The notes under the pieces were generated by a model. The model was not told the DNA's origin, did no database searches, and saw nothing but the letters and a program-made list of their open reading frames with translations. Positions 1-53,896 of a DNA stretch of 64,000 nucleotides are shown piece by piece; positions within the stretch are counted from its first letter, which is position 1, and each line of letters opens with the position of its first letter. Origin of the DNA: Oscillospiraceae bacterium. Its GTDB lineage: Bacteria > Bacillota > Clostridia > Oscillospirales > Oscillospiraceae. Both the position numbers and the translations under genes were made by a program. The stretch lies in the NCBI GenBank assembly GCA_963628785.1, contig CAVGGQ010000001.1:23969-87968 (forward strand), in the 5' to 3' direction.

Positions 1-951
1 AACGTCGAACATATCAACGCCGGCTTTGACAAGGTTCTCCATGTAGTCGAGCGTCTCGTAGATGGAACGGCCGTTCTTGAAGCCCTTGAGGGAGGAGACG
101 GTGTCCATACGCTCGCCGTAGGTCTCTTCCAGAGCGCAGCTCAGGTCGATACGGTACATAATCGGGAACCAGGGGCCAGTGCGCTTGCGCATTTCCTTGA
201 CAATATTGATGCCGAAGAGCTGCCAATCGGTGTACTTGCCCATCTTGCGGTGGTTGAACGCGGTGTTCGTGAGCTGGTCGATGAGGTAGCCCTCGTGGCC
301 GTGCAGATACACACCGTCAATGCCCATTGTCTTGGCATCGGCAGCGCCCTGACCGAAGTTCTTCACAATGGTGTCGAGCTCAAGGTCGGAGAGCGGACGG
401 CAGGGGATACTCGGAATGTAGAAGTTCGGGTTCCAGGAAGCGGAAACGGGCAGTGCATACTTGGTCATGAGGCACTGCGGGTTGCCGACACGGCCGAGGC
501 CGGCGGTGAGCTGGATAAAGATGCGGCTGTTGCGGGCATGGACACCCTGTGCAAGGTCGCGCCAGCCCATGAAGTTCGTGCGAGTTCCGTCGATGCGCGG
601 GAAGTAGGAGAAGTTGCCCTTCTCGGTCACGGAAGCATCGATGTGGTGGCTGACGGGAATAAGACCGGTCGTGAGCAGGCCGACACCGCCCTCGGCGCGC
701 GCGAAGAAGTATTCACGCATCTTGTCGTTCGGACGGCCGGTTTCCTCGGCCATCTGGCAGTTGCCCATAGGCGCCATTACGAGACGGTTTTTGATCGTCA
801 GGCGATTGACGTGAATGGGGGAGAACATGGTATCGTACGGCCACAGTTCCTTGGTGTAGCGGCCGGTGCCGCCCTCCTGGTTTTCAAGATCTTTCCGGAC
901 CCAGTTGCCGTAGCTGTTGACCAGTCTTTCGACCAACGCGTCAGTTTTCAA
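1..951 (-). CDS. NADH:flavin oxidoreductase / 2-enoate reductase family (Old Yellow Enzyme-like). This is the N-terminal 317 codons; the 3' end runs off the window.
   Basis: My own minus-strand translation; it is absent from the ORF track because there is no stop in the window. Sequence: (TTG)KTDALVERL..FSPIHVNRLTIKNRLVMAPMG..AEGGVGLLTTG..RIFIQLTAGLGR..GIDGVYLHGHEGYLIDQL. A GTGGGGA Shine-Dalgarno lies 7 nt upstream of the TTG at 949-951. The listed 250..1026 + ORF is its antisense shadow. Confidence 0.8.
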   Translation of the reverse strand, partial: MKTDALVERLVNSYGNWVRKDLENQEGGTGRYTKELWPYDTMFSPIHVNRLTIKNRLVMAPMGNCQMAEETGRPNDKMREYFFARAEGGVGLLTTGLIPVSHHIDASVTEKGNFSYFPRIDGTRTNFMGWRDLAQGVHARNSRIFIQLTAGLGRVGNPQCLMTKYALPVSASWNPNFYIPSIPCRPLSDLELDTIVKNFGQGAADAKTMGIDGVYLHGHEGYLIDQLTNTAFNHRKMGKYTDWQLFGINIVKEMRKRTGPWFPIMYRIDLSCALEETYGERMDTVSSLKGFKNGRSIYETLDYMENLVKAGVDMFDV

Positions 952-1048
952 ATGAATTCCCCACTTTCTTTTACATTTTATGAATTTTACATTGAATTCT
1001 TAACGGATGCTTTGCGCCATTTGTGAAACCATCACCAACACCATGTTC

Positions 1049-1077
1049 AATTTAACACATTTCGCGTCGATAATCAA
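1049..1077 (-). promoter_or_regulatory. Putative sigma-A promoter for the OYE-like gene
   Basis: Minus strand reads TTGATT (1077-1072), 17 nt, then TAAATT (1054-1049) preceded by TGt (extended -10). It lies about 95 nt upstream of the TTG start. Confidence 0.45.
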
Positions 1078-1097
1078 CAAAAATTATTAAGAAATTC

Positions 1098-1126
1098 TTG
1101 ATTCTTATTTAGAAATATGCTAATAT
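1098..1126 (+). promoter_or_regulatory. Putative sigma-A promoter of the cooC-like/dehydratase-like operon
   Basis: TTGATT (1098-1103), 17 nt, TAATAT (1121-1126). It is divergent from the OYE promoter. Confidence 0.5.
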
Positions 1127-1140
1127 AGTTATGTGATAAA

Positions 1141-1181
1141 AGGAGGACAAAGTGTTCAGAAACAGACACTTTGTCCGCTAA
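1141..1181 (+). promoter_or_regulatory. 5' leader element: strong SD, a 9-codon mini-ORF, and a perfect 11-bp stem hairpin
   Basis: AGGAGG at 1141-1146. GTG at 1152 opens (M)FRNRHFVR with stop TAA at 1179-1181. The hairpin pairs GGACAAAGTGT (1145-1155) with ACACTTTGTCC (1166-1176) around a 10-nt loop, and no U-tract follows. Confidence 0.4.
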
Positions 1182-1201
1182 GTTAAAAAGAGGTACCCAT
1201 A

Positions 1202-1966
1202 ATGGAGACAAATGCAAAAATCATTGCCGTTTCCGGCAAGGGCGGTGTCGGAAAAACGACACTTGCCGCCGCTATGGTGCGCCACCTGACGGAGTGCAAA
1301 CCGGACGCAAGGATCCTTGCCATCGATGCCGACCCCGCCGTCGGCCTTTCCACCTGCCTCGGCGTGGAAGTGAAGCTCACGCTCGACGAGATCCGCAAGC
1401 AAATTATCGATAATGTAGAAGAGGGCAAAACGAAGGAAGCCATGGAACTCGTGGAAGAATCGCGCTTCCGCATCTTCGATGCTCTTGTGGAAAAGAACGG
1501 CTTTGCGTTCCTCGCCATCGGGCGCCCCGAAGCTGAGGGCTGCTACTGCCGCATCAACGCCTATCTGAAAGACGTCATCACGATGCTCTCCGGCGAGTTT
1601 GATTATGTTGTCATTGACAGTGAAGCCGGCATCGAGCAAATCAACCGCCGCGTGCTCGAGAAAGTCACACATCTTCTGCTTGTATCTGACCAAAGCCGCA
1701 AGGGCATTCAGGTCGCCGGCACCATCAAGCAGGTCGCGGACGAGCTCGTTATGTACAACCACATCGGCGCCGTCATCAACCGCGTGACGAATCCGGATTT
1801 AAATAAGTACATCACCATCCCCGGCGTAGAGATCCTCTCCTATATCGATACGGATGAGTATCATGCCGCCAACGATATTCAGGGCAAGACCGTATATGAT
1901 CTGCCGCCCGAGTCGAGCGTCTACCGCGGAACCAAGGAAATTCTCGAAAAGCTCGACATACTTTAA
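1202..1966 (+). CDS. CooC/AcsF-family P-loop ATPase (MinD/ParA-like metallocentre maturation NTPase)
   Basis: 254 aa. Deviant Walker A IAVSGKGGVGKTT, the AIDADP motif, the C-x-C motif EAEGCYCRINAYL typical of CooC, and DSEAGIEQ. SD AAGAGG lies 8 nt upstream. Confidence 0.8.
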   Translation: METNAKIIAVSGKGGVGKTTLAAAMVRHLTECKPDARILAIDADPAVGLSTCLGVEVKLTLDEIRKQIIDNVEEGKTKEAMELVEESRFRIFDALVEKNGFAFLAIGRPEAEGCYCRINAYLKDVITMLSGEFDYVVIDSEAGIEQINRRVLEKVTHLLLVSDQSRKGIQVAGTIKQVADELVMYNHIGAVINRVTNPDLNKYITIPGVEILSYIDTDEYHAANDIQGKTVYDLPPESSVYRGTKEILEKLDIL

Positions 1967-1998
1967 TTTATTTGCGCAAAACTTTTTCACCATAATAG

Positions 1999-2087
1999 AA
2001 ACCACTAACCATCAAAACCAACCACCAAACCACCAACTACCAACCGCAAACCGCTAAGCAAATCAAGTCAATCCAAACGTCAACAAA
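1999..2087 (+). other. A/C-only, G-depleted intercistronic tract
   Basis: Positions 1999-2045 contain no G and only three T (aaccactaaccatcaaaaccaaccaccaaaccaccaactaccaacc). The A/C-rich character continues to about 2087, just before the GAGGGG SD of the next gene. Confidence 0.9.
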
Positions 2088-2102
2088 AGAGGGGTGTGAC
2101 AT

Positions 2103-3299
2103 TTGAAGGATCTAAAGTATCTGATTTACTTCGAGCAGCTTCTGGATAATGCCGACAACGAACTCGTGAAAAAGGCAGCGGCCGATGGTCAGCTGGCTAT
2201 GGGCTACACATGCTATCATGTACCCGAGCCGATCCTGAACGTCGGAAACTGCTTCTCCGTGCGTCTTCGCGCACCGCACACGGGATCCGTCGACATTGCG
2301 ACATACTACATGTCGAACTACACCTGCGAGTTTGCCCGCGCACTGACCGAGCGCGCCATTGAAGGCGGCTACCAGTTCCTGGACGCCATGATTGGCGTCG
2401 ACGCATGCTCCATGATGAACCGCGCTATGGAGCATTTTGAGATCCTGCAGGTCAACGATAAGCCGAACTTTTTCGTGACCCATGCGGATATTCCTTTCAA
2501 AATCACCGACTATACGCTCGAGTCCTACACGAAGCAGATGCGTCTGCGCGTGCTCGGCAAGATGCATGAGAAGTACGGCGTGGATGTCTCCGACGAGGCA
2601 CTGCGCAAAGCGGTGGAAGAGCACAACGAAGTTTGCCGTATCCTCACCGAGATCGGCGAGCTCCGCAAGATGGAGAACCCGCCCATCACTGGCTACGAGT
2701 ACCACATTCTCAACCTTGTTTCCTACACCTGCCCGAAGGCACTGATCCTTCCGTATCTGCGCGAAACGCTCACGGAGATCAAGAAACGCAAGGTCGACGC
2801 AAAGCCGTGGTACCGCGCCCGCGTGTCCATCGTCGGCAGCGAGATCGACGATCCCATGCTCACCAAGCTCATTGAGAACTGCGGCGCTTTCGTCGTGTCC
2901 GACCGCTACTGCTTCGGCTCCACGCCCGGCCGCGAGGTCATCGAGCTCAACGATACGGACGATGTCCTTACGCAGATCTGCCTGCACTACATGAAGCACT
3001 CCGAGTGCGCACGCTACATTGCCGATGAAAAGGTACAGCAGCGCCGCGACACCGCCGACCGCCTCGCCCACGAATTCGGCGCCGAGGGCATCATCTATGA
3101 GCAGATGAAGTACTGTGACTACTGGGGATTCGAGCGCGCTCTCGTCAGCCACATCATGGCCGAAGAGAAGAACTGGCCCGTGCTCTCCATTGACCGTCTG
3201 TACAATAACGGCAACTCCGGACAGCTGCGCACCCGCGTACAGGCGTTCGTTGAGTCGCTGGAGATCAAGCGCATTCGCAAAGAAGGAGGAAACGGCTGA
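2103..3299 (+). CDS. 2-hydroxyacyl-CoA dehydratase / benzoyl-CoA reductase family, beta (HgdB/BcrC-like) subunit, copy 1
   Basis: 398 aa with a TTG start. Motifs: GYTCYHVPEPIL, GVDACSMM, FVVSDRYCFGS, YCDYW. It is about 50% identical by eye to 6903-8108. Confidence 0.8.
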   Translation: MKDLKYLIYFEQLLDNADNELVKKAAADGQLAMGYTCYHVPEPILNVGNCFSVRLRAPHTGSVDIATYYMSNYTCEFARALTERAIEGGYQFLDAMIGVDACSMMNRAMEHFEILQVNDKPNFFVTHADIPFKITDYTLESYTKQMRLRVLGKMHEKYGVDVSDEALRKAVEEHNEVCRILTEIGELRKMENPPITGYEYHILNLVSYTCPKALILPYLRETLTEIKKRKVDAKPWYRARVSIVGSEIDDPMLTKLIENCGAFVVSDRYCFGSTPGREVIELNDTDDVLTQICLHYMKHSECARYIADEKVQQRRDTADRLAHEFGAEGIIYEQMKYCDYWGFERALVSHIMAEEKNWPVLSIDRLYNNGNSGQLRTRVQAFVESLEIKRIRKEGGNG

Positions 3300-5086
3300 T
3301 GGCAAAAACTCCGAAATATCCCAATCCCAAGTTCTTCCGCGCGAAGGACAATATGGACTGGAAGGCCCAGAGCGAAAACCTCAAAGAGTTCCTCAGCATC
3401 AGCAAGGATCTGATCGCCGAGACCGACTGGAAAGCCTTCGGCAAGCGCCAGCTCAAGGGCTGGGCGGACTTCGGCAAGCGCTTTGCGGAAGAGGCGAAGG
3501 AGGTTGCCGCCATGTCCTGCGAGGAGCGCCGCGAGCTGCTGCTCAAGGGCGAGAAAAAGCTCGGCCGCCTCTATAAGAAGGGCGCCATGGCCACCGTCCG
3601 CCGCGAGTGGCGCGGTATCGGCGACACGGCGTATGACTTCACCGAGTGGCTCCGCATGTGGGGCATGCTCCTCGGCACCTTCTCCAAGGATCTCGTGCCT
3701 GCACTGAACTCCGTTCTTTACTACCGCTGGATGATGTCCTATATGTGCTGTGTCGGATTCATGGACAAGAACACCATGGGTCAGCGCGGCTCGGCTCTCA
3801 AGATGAGCCACCTCATGATCTACGATATTTTCCGCTATGTCGCCGAGAACCTCGTTCTACAGGCGAAGGGCGACGCGAAGAACGGCAATAGCGCCGAGCT
3901 GAACAAGAAGGTCGTTCTCTTCGACGAAATGACGATGGGTCAGCTCATGGCCGGCTTCCCCGACCTCATCGGCATTCCGTACCAGCTTTTTGCCGTGTTC
4001 CTGGTCTCCGAGATCGACCAGCTCACCTGCGTGCCGTATATCGACGCCGTCGAGAGCTTCGGCCTGCCCGCCGACTGCTGCCCGGTGCCGTCCTCCGAGT
4101 GCGGCGCCCTCGTTCTGGACGCTCTGCCGCACATGGGCTCCTGCTTCATCTCAAGCTCCATGCCGTGCGACGGCTCCACGATGGCCTCCTCGTACATGGC
4201 ACGCCGCTTCCCGGATCTCCCGGTGTTCCATCTGTGCTTCCCCGTCCGCTACGAGGACAAAGAGACCGTGCAGTGCGCCGCCGAAGACATCCGCGCCTGC
4301 ATCAAGTTCATTGAAGAGCAGACCGGTGCCAAGTGGAGCTGGGACGCTTACTTCACCGCCATGAAGCGCTTCAACACCGAAACGAGCTACGAGCTAGAAA
4401 AATGGGCCGTCAACCAGACGGCGTACCCGCAGATCATCGGACCGTGCTACGAGCTGTTCCGCAAGTGGAACTACGAGATGGACGGCGGCATTGATCCGCG
4501 TGTGCCGAAGACCTTCAAGAAGGTCAACAGCATCATGCTCAAGGCCTACGAGCGCAAGGAAGAAGCCTGGCCCGGCAAGATGAAATACCGCGCTATCGTG
4601 TGGTCCTGCCCCGCGCACTACTACGCGAACTTCTCCAACTGGCTCGCCAACTGCTGGGGCATCAATGTCCTCGTCGAGATGGAAAGTCTCAACTTCACGA
4701 AGCAGCTCGAGACCGAAGATCCCGAAGAAGCGCTGCGCGATCTCGCCCGTCTGTACGAGCGCATGGTCATGCGCCGTCACACGAACGGCGGCTACCAACA
4801 CGTCGTAGACGAGCTCTGGAAGCAGTGCGAGATCTGGAATGTCGACCTCATCATCATGTATCAGAACGTCGCCTGCAAGAACATGGCCACCGTTCAGGGC
4901 ATTCTCGATGATCAGGCCCGCCAGCAGAACCGCAAGATGATCTGGATTGAGCACGATCTGATGGATCCGCGTACCGTCTCCCGCCGCCAGATGCGCGACA
5001 AGGTGAACGAGTACATGCGCACCGTCATGCACGCCGAACCCGTTGACCCGACCCTCGTCGACTTTGAAGACGAGATCTGCATGTAA
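3299..5086 (+). CDS. 2-hydroxyacyl-CoA dehydratase family, large alpha (HgdA-like) subunit, copy 1, with a long N-terminal extension
   Basis: 595 aa. Its start overlaps the upstream stop (TGATG). Motifs: PADCCPVPSSECGALVLD, SSSMPCDGSTMAS, IVWSCPAHYY. It is a paralogue of 8101-9705. Confidence 0.75.
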   Translation: MAKTPKYPNPKFFRAKDNMDWKAQSENLKEFLSISKDLIAETDWKAFGKRQLKGWADFGKRFAEEAKEVAAMSCEERRELLLKGEKKLGRLYKKGAMATVRREWRGIGDTAYDFTEWLRMWGMLLGTFSKDLVPALNSVLYYRWMMSYMCCVGFMDKNTMGQRGSALKMSHLMIYDIFRYVAENLVLQAKGDAKNGNSAELNKKVVLFDEMTMGQLMAGFPDLIGIPYQLFAVFLVSEIDQLTCVPYIDAVESFGLPADCCPVPSSECGALVLDALPHMGSCFISSSMPCDGSTMASSYMARRFPDLPVFHLCFPVRYEDKETVQCAAEDIRACIKFIEEQTGAKWSWDAYFTAMKRFNTETSYELEKWAVNQTAYPQIIGPCYELFRKWNYEMDGGIDPRVPKTFKKVNSIMLKAYERKEEAWPGKMKYRAIVWSCPAHYYANFSNWLANCWGINVLVEMESLNFTKQLETEDPEEALRDLARLYERMVMRRHTNGGYQHVVDELWKQCEIWNVDLIIMYQNVACKNMATVQGILDDQARQQNRKMIWIEHDLMDPRTVSRRQMRDKVNEYMRTVMHAEPVDPTLVDFEDEICM

Positions 5087-5169
5087 TTAAATAAATGCAT
5101 GGAGCCGCGAAGCATAAGATGCGGCATCGATGAACTAACTTTTGTAACAAATTTTGGAGGGTATATATC

Positions 5170-5976
5170 ATGGCAAAGAAGTATTTCGCTGGGTGCGACG
5201 TAGGCTCCACCTATACCAAGGCCGTCATTCTTGACGAACAGGGCAACATCGTAGCCAACACCACCATCAAGAGCAAGATCAACTCCGAAGAATCTGCGAA
5301 GATCGCAATGCAGCAGGTCATCGACCAGGTCTCCGACCTGAGCTCTTCCAAAGATCTCGAGTACCTCATCGGCACCGGCTACGGCCGCAACAAGGTTCCC
5401 TTTGCTGACGAAAACATCTCTGAGATCAGCTGCCACGCCATGGGCGTGCACGTGACCGACCCCTCCGTAAAGGCCATCATCGATATCGGCGGCCAGGACG
5501 TTAAGGGCATCAGCATCGACACCGACGGCACCGTGAAGAACTTCGCGATGAACGATAAGTGCGCCGCCGGTACCGGCCGCTTCTACGAGGCCATGGCCCG
5601 TTCCTTCGAGATGGATCTTACCCAGTTCTCCAACCTCTCCCTGACCGCAAAGAACGTTATCCCCATCACCGCCCAGTGCACCGTGTTTGCCGAGTCCGAG
5701 GTCATCACGCTCGTCGGCGAGGGCAAGCCCATGGACGAGATCGCGGCCGGCATCCAGATGGCCGTTGCCAAGCGCTGCTTCGTTATGGCGAAGAAAGCCG
5801 GCGCCACCGACAGCATCACGCTGACCGGCGGCTGCGCGAAGAACGCCGGCCTCAAGCAGGCCATTGAGCACGTCCTCAAGCTGAAGGTCATCGACCTCAA
5901 GACCGACCCGCAGCTCATGGGTGCTCTCGGCGCGGCAGAGTATGCCCGTCAGAAGGGTCTTTCGAAAGGAGTGTAA
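5170..5976 (+). CDS. ATP-dependent activase of the dehydratase family (HgdC/BcrAD_BadFG ASKHA ATPase)
   Basis: 268 aa. Motifs: CDVGSTYTKAVI, DIGGQDVK, NDKCAAGTGRF and AQCTVFAESEV (the two cluster cysteines), and LTGGCAKN. SD GGAGGG is present. Confidence 0.9.
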   Translation: MAKKYFAGCDVGSTYTKAVILDEQGNIVANTTIKSKINSEESAKIAMQQVIDQVSDLSSSKDLEYLIGTGYGRNKVPFADENISEISCHAMGVHVTDPSVKAIIDIGGQDVKGISIDTDGTVKNFAMNDKCAAGTGRFYEAMARSFEMDLTQFSNLSLTAKNVIPITAQCTVFAESEVITLVGEGKPMDEIAAGIQMAVAKRCFVMAKKAGATDSITLTGGCAKNAGLKQAIEHVLKLKVIDLKTDPQLMGALGAAEYARQKGLSKGV

Positions 5977-5982
5977 TTCCCA

Positions 5983-6150
5983 ATGAAGAAATTCTGGAAA
6001 GTTTTCGGCAAAATCGCTGGCATCCTGACGGCGGTCATCGGAATCCTGTTCGTTGTGTATTTCTGGAATCTTGACCAGAAGCTGCTCTCCTGGGCTTACA
6101 CTGCGGTGAATAAGATCTTCGATCGCAAGAAGACGGACATTAAGTTCTGA
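5983..6150 (+). CDS. 55-aa single-TM peptide, below the ORF-track cutoff; paralogue of 9724-9915
   Basis: My own translation: MKKFWKVFGKIAGILTAVIGILFVVYFWNLDQKLLSWAYTAVNKIFDRKKTDIKF. An AAAGGAG SD lies upstream, and the stop overlaps the next start (TGATG). It shares the KVFGKIA-IL..LF-V-YF-LD-KLL motif with the 63-aa ORF. Confidence 0.65.
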   Translation: MKKFWKVFGKIAGILTAVIGILFVVYFWNLDQKLLSWAYTAVNKIFDRKKTDIKF

Positions 6151-6878
6151 TGGAGCTTTTCAACAGCTGCATTCACGAATCGGAGGAGCTGCTCCGCGGC
6201 TCCTCTCCGGAAAAATGGGCGTACGATTTGTCGGCGTGCTGGAAGGAAACGGACAGAAACGAACTCGTTATGCTGCGCGAAGCCGCCTTTGAACTCGGCG
6301 GCAGCGCGAAAAGCGCTGTATCCTACAGCTGCTTCACGACCGATGAGCGCCTTGTCGGCAGCGACGAGGTGTGGCTGTACGGCCCGGACCTTTCGGAGAT
6401 CAAAGGTGACTGCGCATTCGCGCGCATTGTTCTCTTTTCCATACAGGATGTCGGGGAAGAGGATGAGGCATACCGTGCGCTGCAGGACATTGAATTCGTA
6501 AAATACCATGTGTTCCCCAAAGGATACATGATCCGCGCCCTCTCCGAGGACAACCGCGAGCAGGTGCGCGTAAGCAAAGATGCCGTCCGAGCCGGGATCT
6601 CCTTCAAGAATGTCGGCTTTGACTACATCCGCAAATTCCGCGAAAAGGAAAATGTTCGCTCCGTCCGCGTGATGTTTGTCACCGAACCGAAAGCGGATTA
6701 TGCGTCACTTCGGACGCTGGCGCGCAAGGTGAACGACATTACCCGTTCCTTGAGCACCATTTTAGACGGCATCCCCACCGACTGCGACTCGTGCGGTCTG
6801 CGCGAGATCTGCGATGAGGTGGAAGGTATGCGCGAGCTTCACTTCCAAAAGGCGGGCAAGAACACCGCCGAAAAATAA
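6150..6878 (+). CDS. Stand-alone protein resembling the middle domain of acetyl-CoA synthase (AcsB/CdhC), ending just after a C-x2-C-x5-C motif
   Basis: 242 aa. The stretch EQVRVSKDAVRAGISFKNVGFDYIRKFREK..VRVMFVTEP matches the remembered ACS/CdhC stretch W-x-RVSKDAVAKGFRFKNYGE..VQVTIFTD. The C-terminal TDCDSCGLREIC sits where ACS has the first A-cluster cysteines. Confidence 0.6.
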   Translation: MELFNSCIHESEELLRGSSPEKWAYDLSACWKETDRNELVMLREAAFELGGSAKSAVSYSCFTTDERLVGSDEVWLYGPDLSEIKGDCAFARIVLFSIQDVGEEDEAYRALQDIEFVKYHVFPKGYMIRALSEDNREQVRVSKDAVRAGISFKNVGFDYIRKFREKENVRSVRVMFVTEPKADYASLRTLARKVNDITRSLSTILDGIPTDCDSCGLREICDEVEGMRELHFQKAGKNTAEK

Positions 6879-6902
6879 CAAAGTATCTACGGAGGAAGCC
6901 CC

Positions 6903-8108
6903 ATGCGTGATTTGAAAAATGTCATCTTCTATGATGACCTGCTGCAGGAGGCCTATAACTCTCTTGTACGTCAGGCAAAAGAAGAAGGCAAATATGCCCT
7001 CGGCTATACTTGCTACTTTATGCCGGAAGTCCTTCTCGATCTGCCCGGCTGCTTCAGCGTACGCCTTCGTGCGCCGCGCTGCACCTCGCCCGATATGGCG
7101 ACCTACTACATGTCCGGCCGCGTGTGCCACTATGCGCGCAGCCTTTTGGAGCGCGCTCTCGAAGGCGGCTACAACTTCATCGACGCCCAGCTCGGCACCG
7201 AGACCTGCACCGGCACCTGCCGCTTCCAGGAGCACCTTGGCGAGTTGCCCGACCTCATTCAGAATGAGAAATTCTTCGTCTCTTTCACCGATGTGCCCTT
7301 CAAGAAGAATCAGAACAGCGTAGAACACTTCACCACTACGCTGCAGGTGCATGTGCTCGACGAACTGCACAACCACTTCGGCATTGATGTGTCCGACGAA
7401 GCTCTCTTCAAGGCCATCGAGGAGCACAACGAGGTCTGCGACATCATCACCCAGATCGGTGATTTCCGCAAGCTCGACAACCCGACCATCACCGGCACGG
7501 AGTTCCACACCATCAACCTCGTGTCGATGGTCTGCCCGAAGTACCTTATTCTCCCGTACCTTCGCGAGACGCTCAAAGACCTCAAGACGCGCGAGCCCGA
7601 CAAGAAGCCCGATTACCGCGTCAAAGTCGTCCTCGCCGGATCAGAAAACGACGACCCCGGCTTCACGAAGCTTATCGAGAGCTGCGGCGCTCTCGTCGTG
7701 GCCGACCGTCACTGCTACGGTTCTCTGCCCGGACGCGAGAAGATCGAAGTGCGCGAAGGCGAAAAGCCCCTCACTGCTATCGCCCACCACTATCTCGAAA
7801 CGAGCGTTTGCCCGCGCTTCATGGAGCAGTCCTCCATGCGCAGCCGCAAGCAGTACATCGTCGACATCGCCAAGGAATACAAGGCCGACGGCATCATCGT
7901 GGAATCCAACAAGTTCTGCGAGTACTGGAGCTACGAGCGCGTGGCGGATACGCTCATCCTGCCGCGTGACTTCGGCATCCCCGTGTGCTCCATTGAGAAG
8001 GAGTACATCAACTCCGCCTCCGGTCAGCTCCGCACCCGCTTCCAGGCGTTTGTGGAGAGTCTGGAGATCAAGAAGATCCAGGAGAAGGAGGGCGTGAAGA
8101 ATGGATAA
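6903..8108 (+). CDS. 2-hydroxyacyl-CoA dehydratase family beta (HgdB-like) subunit, copy 2
   Basis: 401 aa. Motifs: GYTCYFMPEVLL, GTETCTGTC, LVVADRHCYGS, FCEYW. The C-terminal QLRTRFQAFVESLEIKKI is almost identical to copy 1. Confidence 0.8.
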   Translation: MRDLKNVIFYDDLLQEAYNSLVRQAKEEGKYALGYTCYFMPEVLLDLPGCFSVRLRAPRCTSPDMATYYMSGRVCHYARSLLERALEGGYNFIDAQLGTETCTGTCRFQEHLGELPDLIQNEKFFVSFTDVPFKKNQNSVEHFTTTLQVHVLDELHNHFGIDVSDEALFKAIEEHNEVCDIITQIGDFRKLDNPTITGTEFHTINLVSMVCPKYLILPYLRETLKDLKTREPDKKPDYRVKVVLAGSENDDPGFTKLIESCGALVVADRHCYGSLPGREKIEVREGEKPLTAIAHHYLETSVCPRFMEQSSMRSRKQYIVDIAKEYKADGIIVESNKFCEYWSYERVADTLILPRDFGIPVCSIEKEYINSASGQLRTRFQAFVESLEIKKIQEKEGVKNG

Positions 8109-9705
8109 GGCCAAAATGAAGAAAGCCCTGAAAGATTTCTGGTACGGCAAGCCGCACGGTGAACGCCGCCTCGGCGACATCATGCTCGACAAGACCGGCC
8201 TCTATAAGCACCGCGAGTGGCGCGGCGTGAAGGACACCTTCTACTACTTCAACAACATTTGGCTCTACAACTACGGCCAGATGATCGCCGACATTCTCAA
8301 GAGCGAAGACCCCATCGCCTTCTTCAAGGGCGTTTGGCGTTACCGCTGGGTCGGCCAGACCTATCTCCCCGTGCTGCACTGGTTTGACCGCGGCTTGCAG
8401 GGCCTCCGCGGCGACGCGCTTCGCGCCTCTGCGTGGCACTACCGTGCGATGGTCTGCGTGACCATTCAGCAGTTCCAGCGCATGTTCGCTGCCGACGCAA
8501 AGCTCAACGGCGGCAAGCACAATGACTACTATGAGCACACCATGGCGCACAAAGAGACCGTCTGGGGCGGCATCTTCTATCCGTGGTCCGACAAGTTCAA
8601 GAACGTTCCTCTGGAAATGATCCCGTACTTTGTCACCTGCCATGTGAATAGCCACACCGTGCTCAACTACATCGATGCCGTGCAGTCCATCGGCCTCCCG
8701 GGCGACCCCTGCCCGATGTGCCAGGCCGAGGCCGGCATCTTCGTCCTCGACGATGTGCCCGATTATTCGCCTCTCTTCGTAACATCCAACGAAGCGTGCG
8801 ACGCGTCCGTCGCGAGCACCGCTCTGCAGGACTGGTTCTTCGATAAGCCGCTCTACGCCATGCCGCAGCCGATGCAGTTTGACGATCCCATCGTCAAGAA
8901 GTACTGCGCCAAGGAGATCGAGGGCGCCTGGAAGTTCATCGAAGAGCAGACCGGCGTTCCGTTCAACTGGGATCTTCTCGTCAAGCGTGTCGAGGCTCAG
9001 AACGAGCTTCAGCGCTTCGAGTGGGAGAAGTGGGATGTGGCCGCCAACACCGATTACTATCCCATCAACGGCGTTGCGCAGGCTCTCTACCGCATCTATC
9101 AGTCTCAGTACGGCGACAACTACATCTGGCACGAGGTCGACGCGCGTGTCCGCAAGATCATGGAGCGCTGCGTGCAGAACAAGAACATCACGTTCCCTAA
9201 TACCCGCCACCGCGTCATTGCATGGTCGTGCGCACCGCTTTATTACTCCAACTGGTGCACATGGGCGTACAACTGCTGGGGTCTCAATGTTGTTATCAAC
9301 ATGGACTCCCTCATGTTCGACATGACCATCCGTACCGACAACTACGAAGACTGCCTCGAGGATATCGCCCAGTACCACATGTGGGCTCCGATGCGCCGTA
9401 TGGCCGTCGGCGGCATGCAGCACTTCTTCGAGCTGTGGAAGTACATGGAACGTTTCAACTGCGACATGGTCGCCATGTATGATCAGCTCCAGTGCAAGGG
9501 CGCGCAGGGCATGCACGGCGTCTTTGAGGACGAGTTCCGCAAGCGCAACATCCATGCCTTCTGGATTCCGCACGCGCTGCCCGACTGCCGCACCGTTTCC
9601 CGCGCGGAGATCCGCCGCATCATCAATGATTACATGACCACCGTCATGCACGAAGAACCGCTCGATCCGTCGCTCCTCGATTTTGACGACTCCATGAGCT
9701 GGTAA
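8101..9705 (+). CDS. 2-hydroxyacyl-CoA dehydratase family alpha (HgdA-like) subunit, copy 2
   Basis: 534 aa, with an 8-nt overlap onto the upstream gene. Motifs: PGDPCPMCQAEAGIFVLD, TSNEACDASVAST, IAWSCAPLYY, and a REWRGVKDTFYYF N-terminal motif shared with copy 1. Confidence 0.75.
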   Translation: MDKAKMKKALKDFWYGKPHGERRLGDIMLDKTGLYKHREWRGVKDTFYYFNNIWLYNYGQMIADILKSEDPIAFFKGVWRYRWVGQTYLPVLHWFDRGLQGLRGDALRASAWHYRAMVCVTIQQFQRMFAADAKLNGGKHNDYYEHTMAHKETVWGGIFYPWSDKFKNVPLEMIPYFVTCHVNSHTVLNYIDAVQSIGLPGDPCPMCQAEAGIFVLDDVPDYSPLFVTSNEACDASVASTALQDWFFDKPLYAMPQPMQFDDPIVKKYCAKEIEGAWKFIEEQTGVPFNWDLLVKRVEAQNELQRFEWEKWDVAANTDYYPINGVAQALYRIYQSQYGDNYIWHEVDARVRKIMERCVQNKNITFPNTRHRVIAWSCAPLYYSNWCTWAYNCWGLNVVINMDSLMFDMTIRTDNYEDCLEDIAQYHMWAPMRRMAVGGMQHFFELWKYMERFNCDMVAMYDQLQCKGAQGMHGVFEDEFRKRNIHAFWIPHALPDCRTVSRAEIRRIINDYMTTVMHEEPLDPSLLDFDDSMSW

Positions 9706-9723
9706 TGAGGGAGGAAGAAAGAA

Positions 9724-9915
9724 ATGCGTAAAGTTCTGAAAGTATTCGGCAAGATCGCCGCTATTCTGGCCGGCATCTATGCTCTGCTGTTCGCAGTGTT
9801 CTACTTCGACCTCGACGGCAAGCTGCTCTACTATGTCGTAGAGCCGTTCCTCGTAAAGCACTACGACAATATGCCCCGCGAAGACGTCACCAAGCGAGCC
9901 TACAAAATCAAGTAA
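9724..9915 (+). CDS. 63-aa single-TM peptide, paralogue of 5983-6150
   Basis: MRKVLKVFGKIAAILAGIYALLFAVFYFDLDGKLLYY.. A GAGGGAGG SD lies upstream. It sits directly after the alpha-2 gene. Confidence 0.65.
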   Translation: MRKVLKVFGKIAAILAGIYALLFAVFYFDLDGKLLYYVVEPFLVKHYDNMPREDVTKRAYKIK

Positions 9916-9921
9916 ATTTAA

Positions 9922-10080
9922 GGCAACACCGCACAATGTCGTCTGCGGCGCTTTGCGGATCTTTTTCGCCGACTCTGCGTCATCAAGCCTTGCCATACAC
10001 AAAGTATGGCTGCGGCTATCTTCCTTGATTCGACGAATAATCTTTCGCAAATCGCACTTGCCGAATTATGCGGTGTTGCC
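9922..10080 (+). repeat. MITE-like intergenic repeat, copy A (long form, about 159 bp) with 16-bp imperfect terminal inverted repeats
   Basis: The left end is GGCAACACCGCACAATGTCGTCTGCGGCGCTTT and the right end is AAATCGCACTTGCCGAATTATGCGGTGTTGCC. It aligns end to end with 54837-54996 and shares the centre CCTTGC-ATACACAAAGTAT-GCTGCG. Confidence 0.8.
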
Positions 10081-10096
10081 TAAAGCCAATCAATAC

Positions 10097-10136
10097 CAAA
10101 AGCGGCGCAGTCCCAACCGACTGCGCCGCTTGTTTC
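10097..10136. terminator. Bidirectional rho-independent terminator
   Basis: Stem GCGGCGCAGT (10102-10111) pairs with ACTGCGCCGC (10120-10129). It is flanked by AAAA on the left and TTGTTT on the right, between convergent operons. Confidence 0.7.
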
Positions 10137-10159: not shown

Positions 10160-11893
10160 TCAACCCGTGATTATTTTCCAAATGCCTCGGAAGAAGCGCC
10201 CGTTGGCGATCTCCACCATGCCGGGCATCAGGCCGCCTTTGATGCCGCCGGAGATCTGCATGCTGCGGATGGGCGCTCCGGCGGAGGAGTTCATCATCAT
10301 CCGGAAGTCCGGGTCATTGTAATCGGCCTTGCCGTCAAACCCATTGACCACGGTCTTTTCTATGGCCTTGTACATCATGTTCATCAAAAGGCTTTGGTCT
10401 TTCATTTCCATCACGGTATTTTCCGTAGTGAAGGAACCTTTTTTTGCCTCGGACGGCGTGTAGGTGCATCCCAAAGCCGCTTCCCAATCCTTTCGGTTCG
10501 GCTTCCCGCTGCAGTGCTCATACCAGCTGCCTGCCTGCCATGCCGCAACGCTCAAACAGTCGCCGGACTTTTCGATATCCGCCGTCAGTCCGCCGACGGA
10601 AACGGTATAGTGTCCCGCAGGCACCTTCCATCCGTCCTGCCATACGGCAAAGCTGCGCTCCGATAGTTCGAAGGTGACGGTGCGTTTCTCGTCGGGCTCC
10701 AGGAATACCTTTCGGAAACCTTTGAGTTCGCGAAGCGGGCGGTGCACTCCGTCTTGCGGCGCGGCGATATACAGCTGCACGACTTCCGCACCGGCACATT
10801 TGCCGGTGTTTTTCACCGTTGCTTTCACGGAATTTCCCGATACCTTCAAACCGGAATAGGCAAATTTCGTGTAGCTGAGTCCGAACCCGAACGCCCAGCG
10901 CACCGGAACGCCGGCTTTTTCGTAGTAACGATAGCCGACATACATGCCTTCCTCGTAGAGCGCATCGGTCGTCTTGCCGTAGATCTCCGAGGTCGGTATA
11001 TCCGCATAGCTCATCGGCCAGCTCTCGGCGAGCCTGCCGCAGGGGTATGCGCGGCCGTACAGGAGATCCGCAATGGCTTCGCCGCCCGCCTCGCCGGGCA
11101 GACCCATATAAAGAATTCCCTTGACGCTGTCCGACCATGGGCATTCCACAGCGCTTCCGCATAGCAGCACGACCACGGTGTTCGGATTGGCTTTCGCCGC
11201 CGCTTCAATCATACGGATATGCCCCTCGGGCATTTTTATATCGTTCCGGTCAAATCCTTCGGATTCGCATCGAGAGGGGAGACCCGCAAAAACGATCACC
11301 GTATTGGCATTCGATGCGGCGCTTTTTACATAAGCGCACATGACAGTGGAAGGCTTGCCCTCTTTTACGGCAATTTCAAAAGCGGTGAGGTAGAGCTCCC
11401 GCAGTGTTCGTTCATCGAGAATGCTGTCGGAGGTGAGCCGATCCAGCTCCTGCGAGTTGTCGGCAAAGTGTTTTAGGCTTGTGCCGATGCCCTGCGATTC
11501 CGCACCGCGGATAAATCCGGCGGCCAGCTTTCCCGCAAGATAGGGATCTTCACTGAAATACTCAAAAATCCGTCCACACAGCGGACTGCGTTTTATGTTG
11601 GCACCCGGCCCCAAAACGAGCCCGACGCCCTGCTTGCGCGCTTCCTCTCCGATGGCACGACCAATGGCTTCCGTGAGCTCGGGGTTCCAGCTGCCTGCTG
11701 TCGTGACCTCGGCCGGGAAACAGGTCGCCGGACGGGAATTGTTCACGCCCAGCATATCGGTCGTGCCCTCCTGCTTGCGCAGACCGTGAGGGCCGTCGCA
11801 CATGAACATCGAAGGAATGCCGTACTTTTCAAACTTTTTTGTTTGCCAAAAGCTCGCGCCGGAGCAAAGAGCGACCTTGTCCTCCAACGACAT
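10160..11893 (-). CDS. GH3 beta-glucosidase homologue carrying an in-frame internal deletion (nucleophile region missing); probably inactive
   Basis: MSLEDKVALCSG..CDGPHGLRKQ..FEYFSEDPYLAG..KHFADNSQE..VMCAY then directly VKSAASNANTVIVFAGLPSRCESEGFDR. The intact paralogue at 55023-57419 has about 190 extra residues there, including VITDWGG. The start is uncertain; the 709-aa track ORF has a non-homologous N-terminal extension that overlaps the PAP2 gene. Confidence 0.7.
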   Translation of the reverse strand: MSLEDKVALCSGASFWQTKKFEKYGIPSMFMCDGPHGLRKQEGTTDMLGVNNSRPATCFPAEVTTAGSWNPELTEAIGRAIGEEARKQGVGLVLGPGANIKRSPLCGRIFEYFSEDPYLAGKLAAGFIRGAESQGIGTSLKHFADNSQELDRLTSDSILDERTLRELYLTAFEIAVKEGKPSTVMCAYVKSAASNANTVIVFAGLPSRCESEGFDRNDIKMPEGHIRMIEAAAKANPNTVVVLLCGSAVECPWSDSVKGILYMGLPGEAGGEAIADLLYGRAYPCGRLAESWPMSYADIPTSEIYGKTTDALYEEGMYVGYRYYEKAGVPVRWAFGFGLSYTKFAYSGLKVSGNSVKATVKNTGKCAGAEVVQLYIAAPQDGVHRPLRELKGFRKVFLEPDEKRTVTFELSERSFAVWQDGWKVPAGHYTVSVGGLTADIEKSGDCLSVAAWQAGSWYEHCSGKPNRKDWEAALGCTYTPSEAKKGSFTTENTVMEMKDQSLLMNMMYKAIEKTVVNGFDGKADYNDPDFRMMMNSSAGAPIRSMQISGGIKGGLMPGMVEIANGRFFRGIWKIITG

Positions 11894-11928
11894 AGAGTCT
11901 ATGATTTGGTTTACATAATAATCGTCCG

Positions 11929-12786
11929 TTATTTGTTCTCCGTTTTGTTTTTCAATAGGACGGCGTCCGTGAGCGCTCTTGCCAGGAGAAATGAGAGCAG
12001 CATAAAGAAGGCACCCGCGGTCACATCCGATGCAAAGTGCGCAGCCAGGACGATGCGTCCGACGCCGATGACCACCGCCCATAAAAGCCCCGCGCCGAGG
12101 AAATATGCGCGCTTTCCCCTGAACTTTTCCAAAACATCGCAGAGCAGCACATAGAGGCAGGCAGCGGCCGCTTTGGATGCATGCCCGGAGGGGAAGGAAT
12201 CTCCGCCGAGTGCCGAAGAGCGAGGTTCGTACCAGACGCAAAAATCGGAATACGGTGCCGTGAGATCGCGCATGCGCGGCCGATCCCAAAAAGATTTGAG
12301 CACATTCACAAAGAGCTCCTGCAGCATTACGGTGACGACTACGATGAGTGCCGCGCGAATGACCTCGTCCCGATGCATGGAGAGGAGCTTTTTCGCGGCA
12401 AACAGAGCGCCGATGCCCATAGCCGTTCCGAGCGTTGCTCCGAGAATGAGCGCGAGCTTCGTGCTCGTATACTTCACGGAGAAGAAAAAGATGAAGAATC
12501 CGTACTCAAATGTGCCGATGAAGCAGATGACCGCCCCCAAAATGCGCCCAAAGCTCTTCTTCTGCCAAAGCGCCGTAAAGAGCACGGCAAAGGACATCAT
12601 CACGAGGAGATCCAGAGGGATCTCGCTGGCCCACTCCGCAAACTTTCCGAAGCCGCTTTCCGTATTCACGTGCGCCAGGGAGCTGTCAAGGTCAAAAAAC
12701 GCGAACAGGGCCATCAAAACCGCGAAAACGCCGATCAGTGCCAACAGACATTTCTTTGTGGAGTAAGACTCTTTGATTTCGTTCAT
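11929..12786 (-). CDS. PAP2-family membrane phosphatase
   Basis: 285 aa and polytopic. PAP2 motifs: KSFWDRPRM, FPSGHAS, GRIVLAAHFASD. Its start overlaps the upstream stop (ATGA). Confidence 0.8.
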   Translation of the reverse strand: MNEIKESYSTKKCLLALIGVFAVLMALFAFFDLDSSLAHVNTESGFGKFAEWASEIPLDLLVMMSFAVLFTALWQKKSFGRILGAVICFIGTFEYGFFIFFFSVKYTSTKLALILGATLGTAMGIGALFAAKKLLSMHRDEVIRAALIVVVTVMLQELFVNVLKSFWDRPRMRDLTAPYSDFCVWYEPRSSALGGDSFPSGHASKAAAACLYVLLCDVLEKFRGKRAYFLGAGLLWAVVIGVGRIVLAAHFASDVTAGAFFMLLSFLLARALTDAVLLKNKTENK

Positions 12787-13580
12787 TTACTTTCCCTCAT
12801 TTCATAGGTCTTGCATCCCGCACTCTGCGTAACCACCTGTCCGTCGGGCAGACGAACCTCGGCTGTGCAGTTGACGGGTACGGTAACGGAAAACGCACAT
12901 CCGGTCTCCGTTCTTGTCCAGCCACTCTCCACGCGTCCGTACAGACTGTTGTATGCGGCCTTTGCGTGCATAAAGCGTCCGCCGGGGCGCGGGGCAATGA
13001 TAAAGCGGTTTTCACCGCCGATGCGGATGCCGCACATCGTATCAAAAAGCCAGCGGCACACGGCACCCTTGGAATAGTGATCGAGCGAAGCCACGCCGCT
13101 TCCCTTGGCACGGTCACCTTCCCACGACTCCCAAATGGTCGTTGCGCCGCTCTTCGGCATGAAGAGCCATCGGGGCATTTCCTCATTTTCGAGAAGCCAG
13201 TAGGCGGCTTCCAAATCAATGTCCGCAAGCACATCGAGGATCAGCGGGGTGGAGAGGAAACCGGTGCCAAGCCGCCAGCCGTAGTTTTCAAGCGCCGTAA
13301 GAAGCCGCTTTTTTGCAAATTCGGTCTGCTCTTCATTGAGCAGGCGGAAAGCGAGTGGGCGCACCAGCTGCGCCTGACGGTCGGTGTCGAGCGTGAATTC
13401 TTTCGTTTTCATCATGGCCTGATAGGCTCTGCGGCAGCCGTCGCTGTATTCTTTATACTTTGCAATATCCGCGCGGTGGCCGAGCTCATCGGCAATCTCA
13501 CACATCAGATCCATGATAGGCCTAGAGCAAACCACGGGCTTTGCCCGCGGTGATTGGATCAACCACTGGAGCAACGCCGC
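12783..13580 (-). pseudogene. C-terminal remnant of a GH78 alpha-L-rhamnosidase
   Basis: Only about the last 260 residues are homologous: ..GTGFLSTPLILDVLADIDLEAAYWLLENEEMPRWLFMPKSGATTIWESWEG..SLDHYSKGAVCRWLF..IAPRPGG. The N-terminal part of the 383-aa track ORF is out-of-frame read-through of the transporter remnant. Confidence 0.7.
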
Positions 13581-13900
13581 TAACTTAGTGACATTGACGG
13601 ACGCGCCTTGCCCTCCGGCGTATGGGTACGGTCGATGATGTAGCCCATGATCACATTGGTGATAGCGTCGATGATTTTTGAAACTATGGGGAAGATGACC
13701 AGAAAGGCGCCGTCTGCGATACGCGTAAGATCGAGAACGTCGGTGTAGTAGACATTGAGATAGGTACCAAGCGCGGCATTGAGAAGCAGTGCTCCCGCAG
13801 GTCCGAGCAGATAGCCGAGCCAACGCTCCTTCGGTGTGACATTTTCGGAAGTGATCTTGCTCCGGAATATCTTCCGGCTCATAAGAGTTTCGCCGTTCAT
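13580..13900 (-). pseudogene. N-terminal remnant (about 100 aa) of a GPH-family glycoside:cation symporter
   Basis: [84 protein letters not shown], then a premature stop. A GGAGGAA SD lies upstream. A full GPH carrier is about 450-500 aa. Confidence 0.7.
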
Positions 13901-13993
13901 GTTTCGTTCCTCCGTTTTTGGGCATGTATTCCATTCGTATAATACCATGCCGATTTTCCGTTGTCAGTATAGCACAAGAGAAAAAGCCTTCAC

Positions 13994-49177: not shown

Positions 49178-49189
49178 CCGCACACCGAC

Positions 49190-49220
49190 AAAAAACGGCT
49201 GCCCTAAGGCAGCCGTTTTC
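49190..49220 (+). terminator. Rho-independent terminator
   Basis: AAAAAA, then CGGCTGCC (49196-49203) pairing with GGCAGCCG (49208-49215), then TTTTC. Confidence 0.8.
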
Positions 49221-49267
49221 GCGCATTTAGCATCCTGCACAAAATGACTGTCATGTTTTACAGCATA

Positions 49268-49298
49268 TTCACAAATGCGAAATACCTTCTTCACAAAA
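49268..49298 (+). promoter_or_regulatory. Candidate LytTR-type operator: two 9-bp direct repeats with a 13-nt spacer
   Basis: TTCACAAAT (49268-49276) and TTCACAAAA (49290-49298), 22 nt start to start. They lie immediately downstream of the LytTR operon. Confidence 0.35.
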
Positions 49299-49677
49299 AC
49301 TTTAAAATCCGTGCAGAAAAATACGCAATTTATGAAAAATCGCACACAAAAATCGAAACCTTGTGTATAGTGTGCACAGTACCAAAAGCAGCGGAGAACG
49401 TGTCTCCCTGCGTTTGCTCTCTTTTAGCCGATTGTAAAAGTCATAAAATCGAATAGAGTTTTTCAATTCAATCCCTCATTGTGATGAAAATTTCTATTTG
49501 CTGCACAGCAGAGAAAAAATCCGCTGCTTTACCTCGTGAAAGTGGTTGATTTTTATGAATTTATCAAGTTTTGCAAACGGCTATAATAAAATCAGAAAGG
49601 AGAAACGATAGGGGATCCAACCGGTATCCAGTGGGTACAAGCAAATCTTACAACATAATTTCAAAAGGAGGAAAACC

Positions 49678-52599: not shown

Positions 52600-52649
52600 C
52601 CCGACTTTCGGAAAACCTGAATACAAAATAAGCTCTTAAGGGGGTTTAC

Positions 52650-53879: not shown

Positions 53880-53896
53880 GAAAGAGGTGAACGATT

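Follow-up and report, generated by a model that had tools for sequence, protein, structure and literature searches.

We analyzed a 64,000-nucleotide stretch of DNA from an Oscillospiraceae bacterium (GenBank assembly GCA_963628785.1, contig CAVGGQ010000001.1, positions 23,969–87,968 of the forward strand; hereafter the window, whose numbering is used throughout). On balance, an operon at its left end (1202–9915, + strand) probably encodes an uncharacterized ATP-dependent, very-low-potential reductase of the benzoyl-CoA reductase/2-hydroxyacyl-CoA dehydratase (BCR/HAD) superfamily, in which a shared service module works with interchangeable catalytic modules. The service module would comprise an activase, a CooC-like ATPase, and an acetyl-CoA synthase (ACS)-like protein, and each catalytic module would comprise a β subunit with a double cubane, an α subunit with an open-site [4Fe-4S] cluster, and a small membrane peptide. 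The initial annotation, a model's reading of the window, had already named the ten ORFs of this region. The ORF list reproduces all of its coordinates, including those of a divergent flavoenzyme gene (1–951, − strand), and the motifs that it singled out (GKGGVGKT, DADP, GCYC, NDKCAAGTGRF, and AQCTVFAESE) are all found in the translations. Its proposal of an ATP-driven low-potential enzyme system, with a double-cubane enzyme as one option, is supported by protein families, folds, cluster ligands, and conserved gene linkage.

The β subunits conserve the ligands of a double cubane

The four large ORFs of the operon match the Pfam family HGD-D, as had been predicted. The β subunits scored 300 bits (β1, 398 aa, 2103–3299) and 297 bits (β2, 401 aa, 6903–8108), and the α subunits 121 bits (α1, 595 aa, 3299–5086) and 106 bits (α2, 534 aa, 8101–9705), with the α match confined to the C-terminal part (residues 247–572 in α1). 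The initial annotation described the two pairs as dehydratase-like. This holds at the level of the superfamily, but both pairs are nearer to BzdN/BzdO and the double-cubane proteins than to HadBC. Among structures in the PDB, β1 matched BzdN (8s02_B, 3e-21), DCCP (1e-18), and HadC (3e-9). Against NCBIfam models, β1 scored 143 bits for double_cubane (cut-off 350), 80 bits for bzdN (cut-off 454), and 71 bits for HadC (cut-off 700); β2 scored 128 bits for double_cubane and 86 bits for bzdN, again under both cut-offs.

The [8Fe-9S] cluster of BzdN is ligated by Cys36, Cys73, Cys100, Cys263, Cys293, and Cys327 (PMC11971306). In β1, C37, C75, C102, C270, C302, and C338 align to these positions. Every one of 43 β sequences drawn from three paralogue groups has all six, β2 has the same set, and C50, C178, and C210 are likewise conserved. 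The β subunits are thus predicted, from their aligned cysteines, to carry an [8Fe-9S] double cubane.

Divergent α subunits with a three-cysteine site

The sequence of α1 is very divergent, with MbdO as its best PDB sequence match at 2e-3. The two α subunits scored 36 and 30 bits for double_cubane, and bzdO gave no hit. The family is also small, with 801 representatives at E ≤ 1e-3 among 1.84 billion clusters at 50% identity. An AlphaFold2 model of α1, built on 28 diverse relatives (predicted local distance difference test (pLDDT) score 85), was matched by Foldseek to BzdO (8s02_C, 5e-14, TMt 0.73) and HadB (3o3m_A, 7.5e-14, TMt 0.80), and also to MbdO and DCCP. Approximately 190 additional residues at its N-terminus, mostly helical, had no counterpart in the matched structures. 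C261, C290, and C526 were invariant in 60 BLAST-verified α sequences spanning three paralogue groups; BzdO (C95/C128/C380) and HadB bind their catalytic [4Fe-4S] cluster through three cysteines in the same pattern. C204, C233, and C465 of α2 align with the three invariant residues of α1. At 32% identity to each other, α1 and α2 probably take different but related substrates.

A single activase and a family of membrane peptides

The operon contains one activase gene, the sole copy in the locus, which encodes an HgdC/HadI-type protein ("archerase") of 268 aa (5170–5976). The predicted BcrAD_BadFG family was matched with 190 bits, and the protein scored 214 bits for CoA_E_activ (TIGR00241), above the cut-off of 125 bits. 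Its PDB matches were MbdQ (1e-59), HadI (7e-59), and HgdC (3e-53). The cluster cysteines C131 and C170 are invariant among orthologues, which remain 84–96% identical to the window protein across bacterial families.

Each α/β pair is accompanied by a small ORF, one of 55 aa (5983–6150, module 1) and one of 63 aa (9724–9915, module 2). Both had been annotated as transmembrane peptides, and each has a hydrophobic segment at residues 7–25, with 19-residue Kyte–Doolittle means of 2.41 and 2.21, as expected of single-pass membrane peptides. The 55-aa peptide matched no Pfam or NCBIfam family, yet its C-terminal segment, LFVVYFWNLDQKLLGWAY.QVN.IFDRKK.DIKF, is conserved across bacterial families, and the 63-aa peptide aligns with this family, such that the two are homologous. 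A small ORF also follows the α gene in most of the extra modules described below and in the remote loci L095, L094, L093, and L092. We consider these peptides to be real because the family is so strongly conserved.

The gene cluster is conserved in gut and rumen bacteria

The family of the ACS-like protein has 2662 relatives at E ≤ 1e-3 in a collection of 5.8 billion proteins, and a scan of one genome per species yielded at least 501 confirmed relatives, mostly in Oscillospiraceae, Lachnospiraceae, and Anaerovoracaceae. They come from human, animal-gut, and rumen samples, and one carrier is the isolate Brotocaccenecus cirricatena CLA-AA-H272 (L009). Single variants of the ACS-like protein were found on hundreds of gut metagenome contigs.

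We looked for counterparts of the ten window proteins in 85 loci and counted arrangements in the 46 that had enough upstream sequence. The full core order (CooC-like, β, α, activase, peptide, ACS-like) was present in 32 of the 46 loci. Two others (L018 and L026) had the CooC-like, activase, and ACS-like genes together with separate α/β genes, and the remaining arrangement, the CooC-like and ACS-like genes only, was seen in 12. Up to two additional β-α-peptide modules (from none to two) lay nearby on either strand. Identity to the window proteins ranged from 56 to 98% for α1 and from 49 to 97% for the ACS-like protein. Clustering is far beyond chance because dozens of species share both the gene order and the gene content. 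Conserved linkage with the dehydratase-like genes, on which the initial annotation depended, was therefore observed in Oscillospiraceae, Lachnospiraceae, and Anaerovoracaceae, and also in relatives whose α subunits are only 24–28% identical.

Of the remote relatives, L089 (GCA_015655215.1, 4866–18432; α 24%) combines CooC-like, β, α, activase, and ACS-like genes with two small ORFs. Its flanks encode an AcrC-like acyl-CoA dehydrogenase with EtfBA, FixCX, an acetoacetate-decarboxylase (ADC)-family protein, and two 3-hydroxyacyl-CoA dehydrogenases, and this locus may be the most tractable context for a guess at the substrate. L093 (α 28%) has the components of L089 in a different order. L092 (α 27%) encodes β, α, and the activase together with a 47-aa ORF, an old yellow enzyme (OYE)-type flavoenzyme, and an aldehyde:ferredoxin-oxidoreductase-family protein. 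The CooC-like/ACS-like pair is missing at the α/β loci L091, L092, and L097, and at L097 a 4HBT-type thioesterase and a major facilitator superfamily transporter adjoin β-α. The contigs of L088, L094, L095, and L096 were too short to inform. As the initial annotation had noted, there is no CoA-transferase, Etf, carbon monoxide dehydrogenase (CODH), or corrinoid gene among the checked ORFs of the window, and acyl-CoA dehydrogenase/Etf genes were found near the core in remote L089 only.

Other genes were seen beside the cluster. A gene for HtpG (HSP90) adjoins the core or extra modules in 15 loci from Oscillospiraceae and Anaerovoracaceae (for example, L001 14049–15944, L026 6299–8278, and L046 10998–12893), and HtpG may be a chaperone for a multi-cluster enzyme. 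Two lineages have a Cytidylate_kin2-family gene next to the cluster (L001 3308–4881, where it adjoins a uridine-kinase-like gene, and L007 602–2554, where the ORF also matches MatE), and purine or pyrimidine genes are near the cluster in other loci. This proximity to nucleotide genes may be coincidence.

A CooC-like ATPase is paired with a truncated acetyl-CoA synthase

The first gene of the operon (1202–1966) encodes a P-loop ATPase of 254 aa (Pfam CbiA/AAA_31/ArsA). The initial annotation took it to be CooC-like, and CooC1 (3kje) is indeed its best PDB match at 3.3e-15, with the next matches (MinD/ArsA, ~ 3e-7) eight orders behind. It has the deviant Walker A motif GKGGVGKT, and its C114-Y-C116 aligns with the CyCR metal motif of CooC1. 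Across 44 orthologues, C114, C116, and H157 show no variation.

The predicted likeness of the 242-aa product of 6150–6878 to ACS began from a weak profile score, 24.4 bits for Pfam CdhC and just at the cut-off of 24, and is backed by fold and by profile alignment. A family profile aligned residues 42–190 to residues 335–479 (the A2 domain) of Moorella thermoacetica ACS with E 1e-4, and for an AlphaFold2 model (pLDDT 77) all 22 of 22 Foldseek matches at E ≤ 0.001 were acetyl-CoA synthases, the best being 1oao_C (1.7e-8). The tail C212xxC215x5C221DEVEG..ELHF is invariant and lies roughly at the position of C506xxC509 in ACS. The protein has no counterpart of the A-cluster ligands C528 or C595-G-C597, and ends ~ 30 residues after its tail cysteines. 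It is therefore a truncated acetyl-CoA synthase, consisting of the middle (A2) domain and a CxxCx5C tail, and cannot be an acetyl-CoA synthase itself.

An ATPase with an aligned CxC beside a partner with the ACS A2 fold mirrors the position of acsF beside acsB. Unlike in CODH/ACS systems, the operon's ACS-like protein has neither the N-terminal domain of ACS nor its A-cluster ligands, and the window contains no CODH, corrinoid protein, or methyltransferase. This excludes acetyl-CoA synthase chemistry for the operon. In neither the window nor the related loci did we find CODH or a full ACS near the CooC-like gene, where the truncated protein was the sole ACS-type product. The two proteins appear to work as a pair because their genes also stand alone, as a bicistronic unit, in the 12 loci noted above.

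In ~ 10 species, the lone pair is divergent from an [FeFe]-hydrogenase gene (L020, L029, L032, L037, L039, L048, L050, L051, L053, and L056; for example, L048 7378–8961). The hydrogenase has two ferredoxin-like domains, and its TSCCP, PCxxK (PCDAK), and MACPGGC motifs are intact. This arrangement hints at a link to hydrogen or low-potential electron metabolism. Separately, two lineages encode a CsoR/RcnR-family metal-sensing repressor (Trns_repr_metal) no more than a few kb away from the cluster (L001 16967–17305 and L086 2252–2599), which could bear on the involvement of a metal such as Ni or Cu.

If the pair did not serve the α/β subunits as maturation factors, it might be a merely co-located unit, such as a general low-potential electron relay or a metal-handling pair shared with hydrogenase, or supply structural subunits of the holoenzyme. 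The true [FeFe]-hydrogenase gene beside the lone pair and the α/β loci that lack the pair (L091, L092, and L097) would fit such a role, as would the assembly of BzdNO in Escherichia coli without a dedicated factor (PMC11971306). Set against this, the pair is embedded in the operon and translationally coupled, with the stop codon of the 55-aa ORF overlapping the start of the ACS-like gene, and it stays with activase, α, and β at 24–28% α identity even where the genes are reordered. We think a separate role of this kind rather unlikely. We would give similarly slight credence to a further possibility, in which the accessory pair serves to build or hold a Ni-containing or non-standard Fe-S center for the α/β subunits, which would then carry out a membrane-tethered, possibly CoA-independent Birch-type reduction or reductive dehydroxylation.

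A divergent flavoenzyme of the FadH/NCR type

Across the control region lies the N-terminal part (317 codons) of the flavoenzyme gene, which is cut by the window edge (1–951, − strand). The predicted Oxidored_FMN domain was matched at 6e-29. Full-length orthologues at 96% identity (L007, 756 aa; L086, 754 aa) have a Pyr_redox_2 domain after the barrel. The best PDB matches of the enzyme were the 2,4-dienoyl-CoA reductase FadH (1ps9, 2.5e-59) and the dearomatizing 2-naphthoyl-CoA reductase NCR (6qkg, 2.6e-46). The protein thus resembles FadH, NCR, and the clostridial 2-enoate reductases in combining an OYE TIM barrel with Pyr_redox_2. It differs from them in an N-terminal extension of ~ 40 aa, and it falls under every NCBIfam equivalog cut-off (the fragment in the window scored 78 bits for BaiCD, cut-off 825). 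In 14 loci, an OYE-type gene is found beside the core; the Lachnospiraceae among them carry a different OYE with 27% identity. At remote L092, an OYE-type gene is within the same operon. An OYE-family Fe-S partner is a trait shared with anaerobic naphthoyl-CoA metabolism.

Relation to known members of the BCR/HAD superfamily

The operon resembles the HADs (HadBC/HadI, HgdAB/HgdC, and FldBC/FldI) in its HGD-D-fold α/β heterodimer, its three-Cys α cluster, and its single homodimeric [4Fe-4S] activator. It might encode two HAD-type ketyl-radical dehydratases, each carrying out the redox-neutral dehydration of 2-hydroxy acids or their CoA esters with one catalytic electron, with the flavoenzyme reducing the resulting enoate. 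FldBC/FldI plus FldZ of Clostridium sporogenes provides the precedent. Such a pathway would account for a single activase of homodimer type that matches HadI at 7e-59, the best TM-score of α being to HadB, an OYE-type enoate reductase next to the operon, and the position of L089 among acyl-CoA dehydrogenase/Etf and 3-hydroxyacyl-CoA dehydrogenase genes. However, HAD β subunits have lost the double-cubane ligands and carry a single [4Fe-4S]/[4Fe-5S] cluster, whereas the operon's β keeps the full six-Cys set; its HadC score is about a tenth of the equivalog cut-off, and neither a CoA-transferase nor a 2-hydroxyacid dehydrogenase was found in the window or recurring in related loci. The operon also has accessory proteins and membrane peptides that HADs do not have. 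Because of the β cluster type and the missing CoA-transferase, we do not regard the operon as a HAD system, and we consider the dehydratase explanation unlikely. Net reduction as in BCR is preferred over redox-neutral dehydration because of the double-cubane ligands, the affinities to BzdN and BzdO, a gene order like that of bzdNO, and the FadH/NCR-like flavoenzyme.

The Bzd/Mbd class I benzoyl-CoA reductases (BzdNOPQ, MbdONQP; 8s02, 9g87, and 9gai) are similar in that β has the six [8Fe-9S] cysteines of BzdN, α is like BzdO in fold and three-Cys site, and the ASKHA activase best matches MbdQ. The β-α-activase order of the operon parallels bzdN-bzdO-bzdP/Q. The differences are that the operon has one activase gene, in the window and in most relatives, where Bzd has a P/Q pair; that its α subunit is < 20% identical and N-terminally extended; and that it lacks a CoA ligase and a BzdM ferredoxin. 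It adds the CooC-like and ACS-like proteins and the membrane peptides, and has two to three α/β modules per activase. With one activase gene and scores far under the bzdN cut-off, it is not a Bzd-type BCR.

DCCP/DCCP-R (6eno and 7yyl; NF040772; E. coli YjiM/YjiL) shares the single homodimeric activase partner. The operon's β aligns to DCCP over the full length and holds 6 of 7 positions of the Cys motif, with C50 nearby. In contrast to DCCP, a homodimer in which the double cubane is the active site, the operon's β is always paired with a distinct three-Cys α. Since it is heterodimeric and under the NF040772 cut-off, the operon does not encode a DCCP. Overall, in its working the system is closest to a Bzd-type BCR or to a DCCP in heterodimeric form.

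Membrane lipids can be substrates within this superfamily, as the glycerol ester reductase Ger and the plasmalogen synthase PlsA demonstrate (PMC13159169). PlsA/PlsR and Ger share the families PF06050 and PF01869 with the operon; they do not need CoA, have membrane substrates, and are widespread in anaerobes. With these as precedent, the operon could encode a housekeeping, membrane-associated enzyme that modifies a lipid or another hydrophobic cell component without CoA. The dedicated single-pass peptide of each α/β module, the absence of CoA-handling genes from the locus, the mostly housekeeping neighbors (RF-1, Sua5, UPRTase, purine synthesis, and HtpG), and an activase that is 84–96% identical across families, as would be expected of a core function, are all consistent with this. 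The architecture is different, however: PlsA and Ger are fused BBDH multi-domain proteins with DUF2229, a domain that Pfam did not detect in the operon proteins, and have neither separate α and β subunits nor CooC-like/ACS-like proteins or small peptides. In addition, the one to three paralogous modules look like substrate diversification in catabolism or respiration, and the FadH/NCR-like partner suggests soluble enoyl or dienoyl (CoA) substrates. We regard a lipid-modifying function as very unlikely.

That the operon is undescribed, as the initial annotation proposed, agrees with a full-text literature search, from which subscription journals were mostly absent and which returned no matching pathway or gene combination. 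Three other systems were considered and rejected. The SAO selenoprotein/double-cubane neighborhood (Haft and Gwadz preprint) has a different gene set, and the operon's β is under the NF040772 cut-off; the putative isoprene reductase operon of Acetobacterium (PMC10134865) has HypA/HypB and a different oxidoreductase without HGD-D genes; and the reductive uric-acid pathway (PMC12507026) is XdhD/YgfK-based and has no BCR-like enzyme.

A model for the reductase

In the reading that we favor, an ATP-driven BCR/HAD-type reductase, reduced ferredoxin or flavodoxin would donate an electron to the homodimeric HgdC-type activase, whose [4Fe-4S] cluster would be held, by homology, by C131 and C170. Powered by ATP hydrolysis, the electron would next move to β, whose [8Fe-9S] double cubane could store electrons as in BzdN. 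From there, it would pass to the three-Cys [4Fe-4S] cluster of α, with its open iron site, and on to the substrate. Each α/β pair may be tethered to the membrane by its own single-pass peptide of ~ 55–70 aa. The CooC-like and ACS-like proteins would provide ATP-dependent delivery, insertion, or repair of an α/β metal center, in which the ACS-like protein would act as a scaffold or an adaptor, after the model of AcsF/CooC acting on ACS/CODH. The FadH/NCR-like flavoenzyme might reduce a C=C bond of the same carbon skeleton in an adjacent step.

As a guess, the substrate is an aromatic, dienoyl, or α-hydroxy carboxylate, possibly as a CoA thioester. The contexts of L089 and L097 hint at CoA thioesters, and those of L092, together with the FadH/NCR match, at aromatic or dienoyl chemistry. 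The peptides, the housekeeping neighbors, and the PlsA/Ger precedent make a membrane or lipid substrate possible.

Several observations weigh against this model. When produced in E. coli, BzdNO acquires its [8Fe-9S] cluster with no help from dedicated factors (PMC11971306), so that a double cubane does not obviously call for a special maturation pair. The lone pair beside hydrogenase genes may have a role that exceeds serving α/β. For both of these reasons, the metal-center role of the accessory pair is the weakest step of the model; co-occurrence suggests an assembly or scaffold function, as it suggests the flavoenzyme as the next step. A single activase gene and an α subunit that fits HadB as well as BzdO leave room for a dehydratase-type cycle. 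NCBIfam equivalog cut-offs were all missed by a wide margin, and among the neighbors of 81 loci no CoA ligase/transferase or dehydrogenase recurred beside the gut loci.

Organization of the locus and its flanks

The tight junctions of the initial annotation follow from the ORF coordinates: TGATG at 3297–3301 and 6148–6152, and an 8-nt overlap of β2 and α2 at 8101–8108. The flavoenzyme gene and the operon diverge from a control region at 952–1201, which contains a putative σA promoter, a palindrome, and a ribosome-binding site. The promoter proposed at 1098–1126 consists of TTGATT (1098–1103), a 17-nt spacer, and a TG-extended TAATAT (1121–1126). It has 8 of 12 consensus positions, which is below the scan threshold, but most related loci show the same layout, TTGCAw/TTGATT as −35 and a TG-extended −10, at the corresponding place ahead of the CooC-like gene. 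A ribosome-binding site ahead of this gene was read near 1187–1194. Between the two lies a perfect 10-bp inverted repeat (1145–1176, GGACAAAGTG-N12-CACTTTGTCC). We rejected it as a conserved operator because it is absent from the 92–96% relatives L007, L008, and L086; a riboswitch or leader RNA in the control region was likewise rejected, as an Rfam search gave no match.

The terminator scan revealed no terminator-like sites on the + strand in the two larger intergenic gaps. The operon ends between convergent genes, with two hairpins (9941–10131). The initial annotation had placed no terminator before 10097–10136, and the strong hairpin there was confirmed (10100–10131, 13 bp, without a good T-run), but a weak hairpin with a T-run (9941–9960) directly follows the last gene. 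A σ70-like site (5142–5171; TTGTAA, 18 nt, TATCAT) in the 83-nt gap ahead of the activase gene could give rise to a separate transcript for the activase and the downstream genes.

The genes of the downstream flank (10160–13934, − strand) look decayed. In a glycoside hydrolase family 3 (GH3) ORF, both catalytic domains were matched in part only, and in an α-L-rhamnosidase ORF, only the C-terminal half of the 6-hairpin domain and the C-terminal domain were matched. The 92% relatives L086 and L007 have DUF402, diaminopimelate epimerase, AraC, and an SDF transporter at this place instead. Because the flanks differ in this way, the ten-gene block appears to be a cassette with variable flanks. Elsewhere in the window, the region ~ 48000–54000 has a GC content of 0.49, compared with ~ 0.56 elsewhere, and contains a GHKL-type sensor kinase ORF and a 973-aa GH3 ORF in which the C-terminal domain precedes the N-terminal one. 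This region may be acquired DNA.

Implications

The reactions catalyzed by BCR/HAD enzymes are among the most reducing in biology, and few substrate classes of these enzymes are known. To our knowledge, the well-understood members of the superfamily all act on CoA esters. In public records (for example, WP_302930123.1 and MBQ1743255.1), the ACS-like protein bears the label "carbon monoxide dehydrogenase", "CO-methylating acetyl-CoA synthase", or "CODH/ACS beta subunit", and this mislabeling can lead to false Wood–Ljungdahl or acetogen calls in gut and rumen metagenomes. The system is thus of interest for anaerobic enzymology, gut-microbiome function, and annotation, and cultured B. cirricatena CLA-AA-H272 offers an experimental entry point.

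In our literature search, we found no earlier report of a system in which a double-cubane subunit occurs alongside a CooC-type ATPase, membrane peptides, and an ACS fragment. This combination could represent a new route of metallocluster maturation or a new cofactor. Should the pair prove to build or hold a Ni-containing or non-standard center, the operon would be the first case in the BCR/HAD superfamily of a branch that is matured by chaperones and may depend on Ni, and this branch would be present in hundreds of gut and rumen species. Given the number of species that carry it, the operon represents a common and strongly conserved part of gut and rumen redox metabolism.

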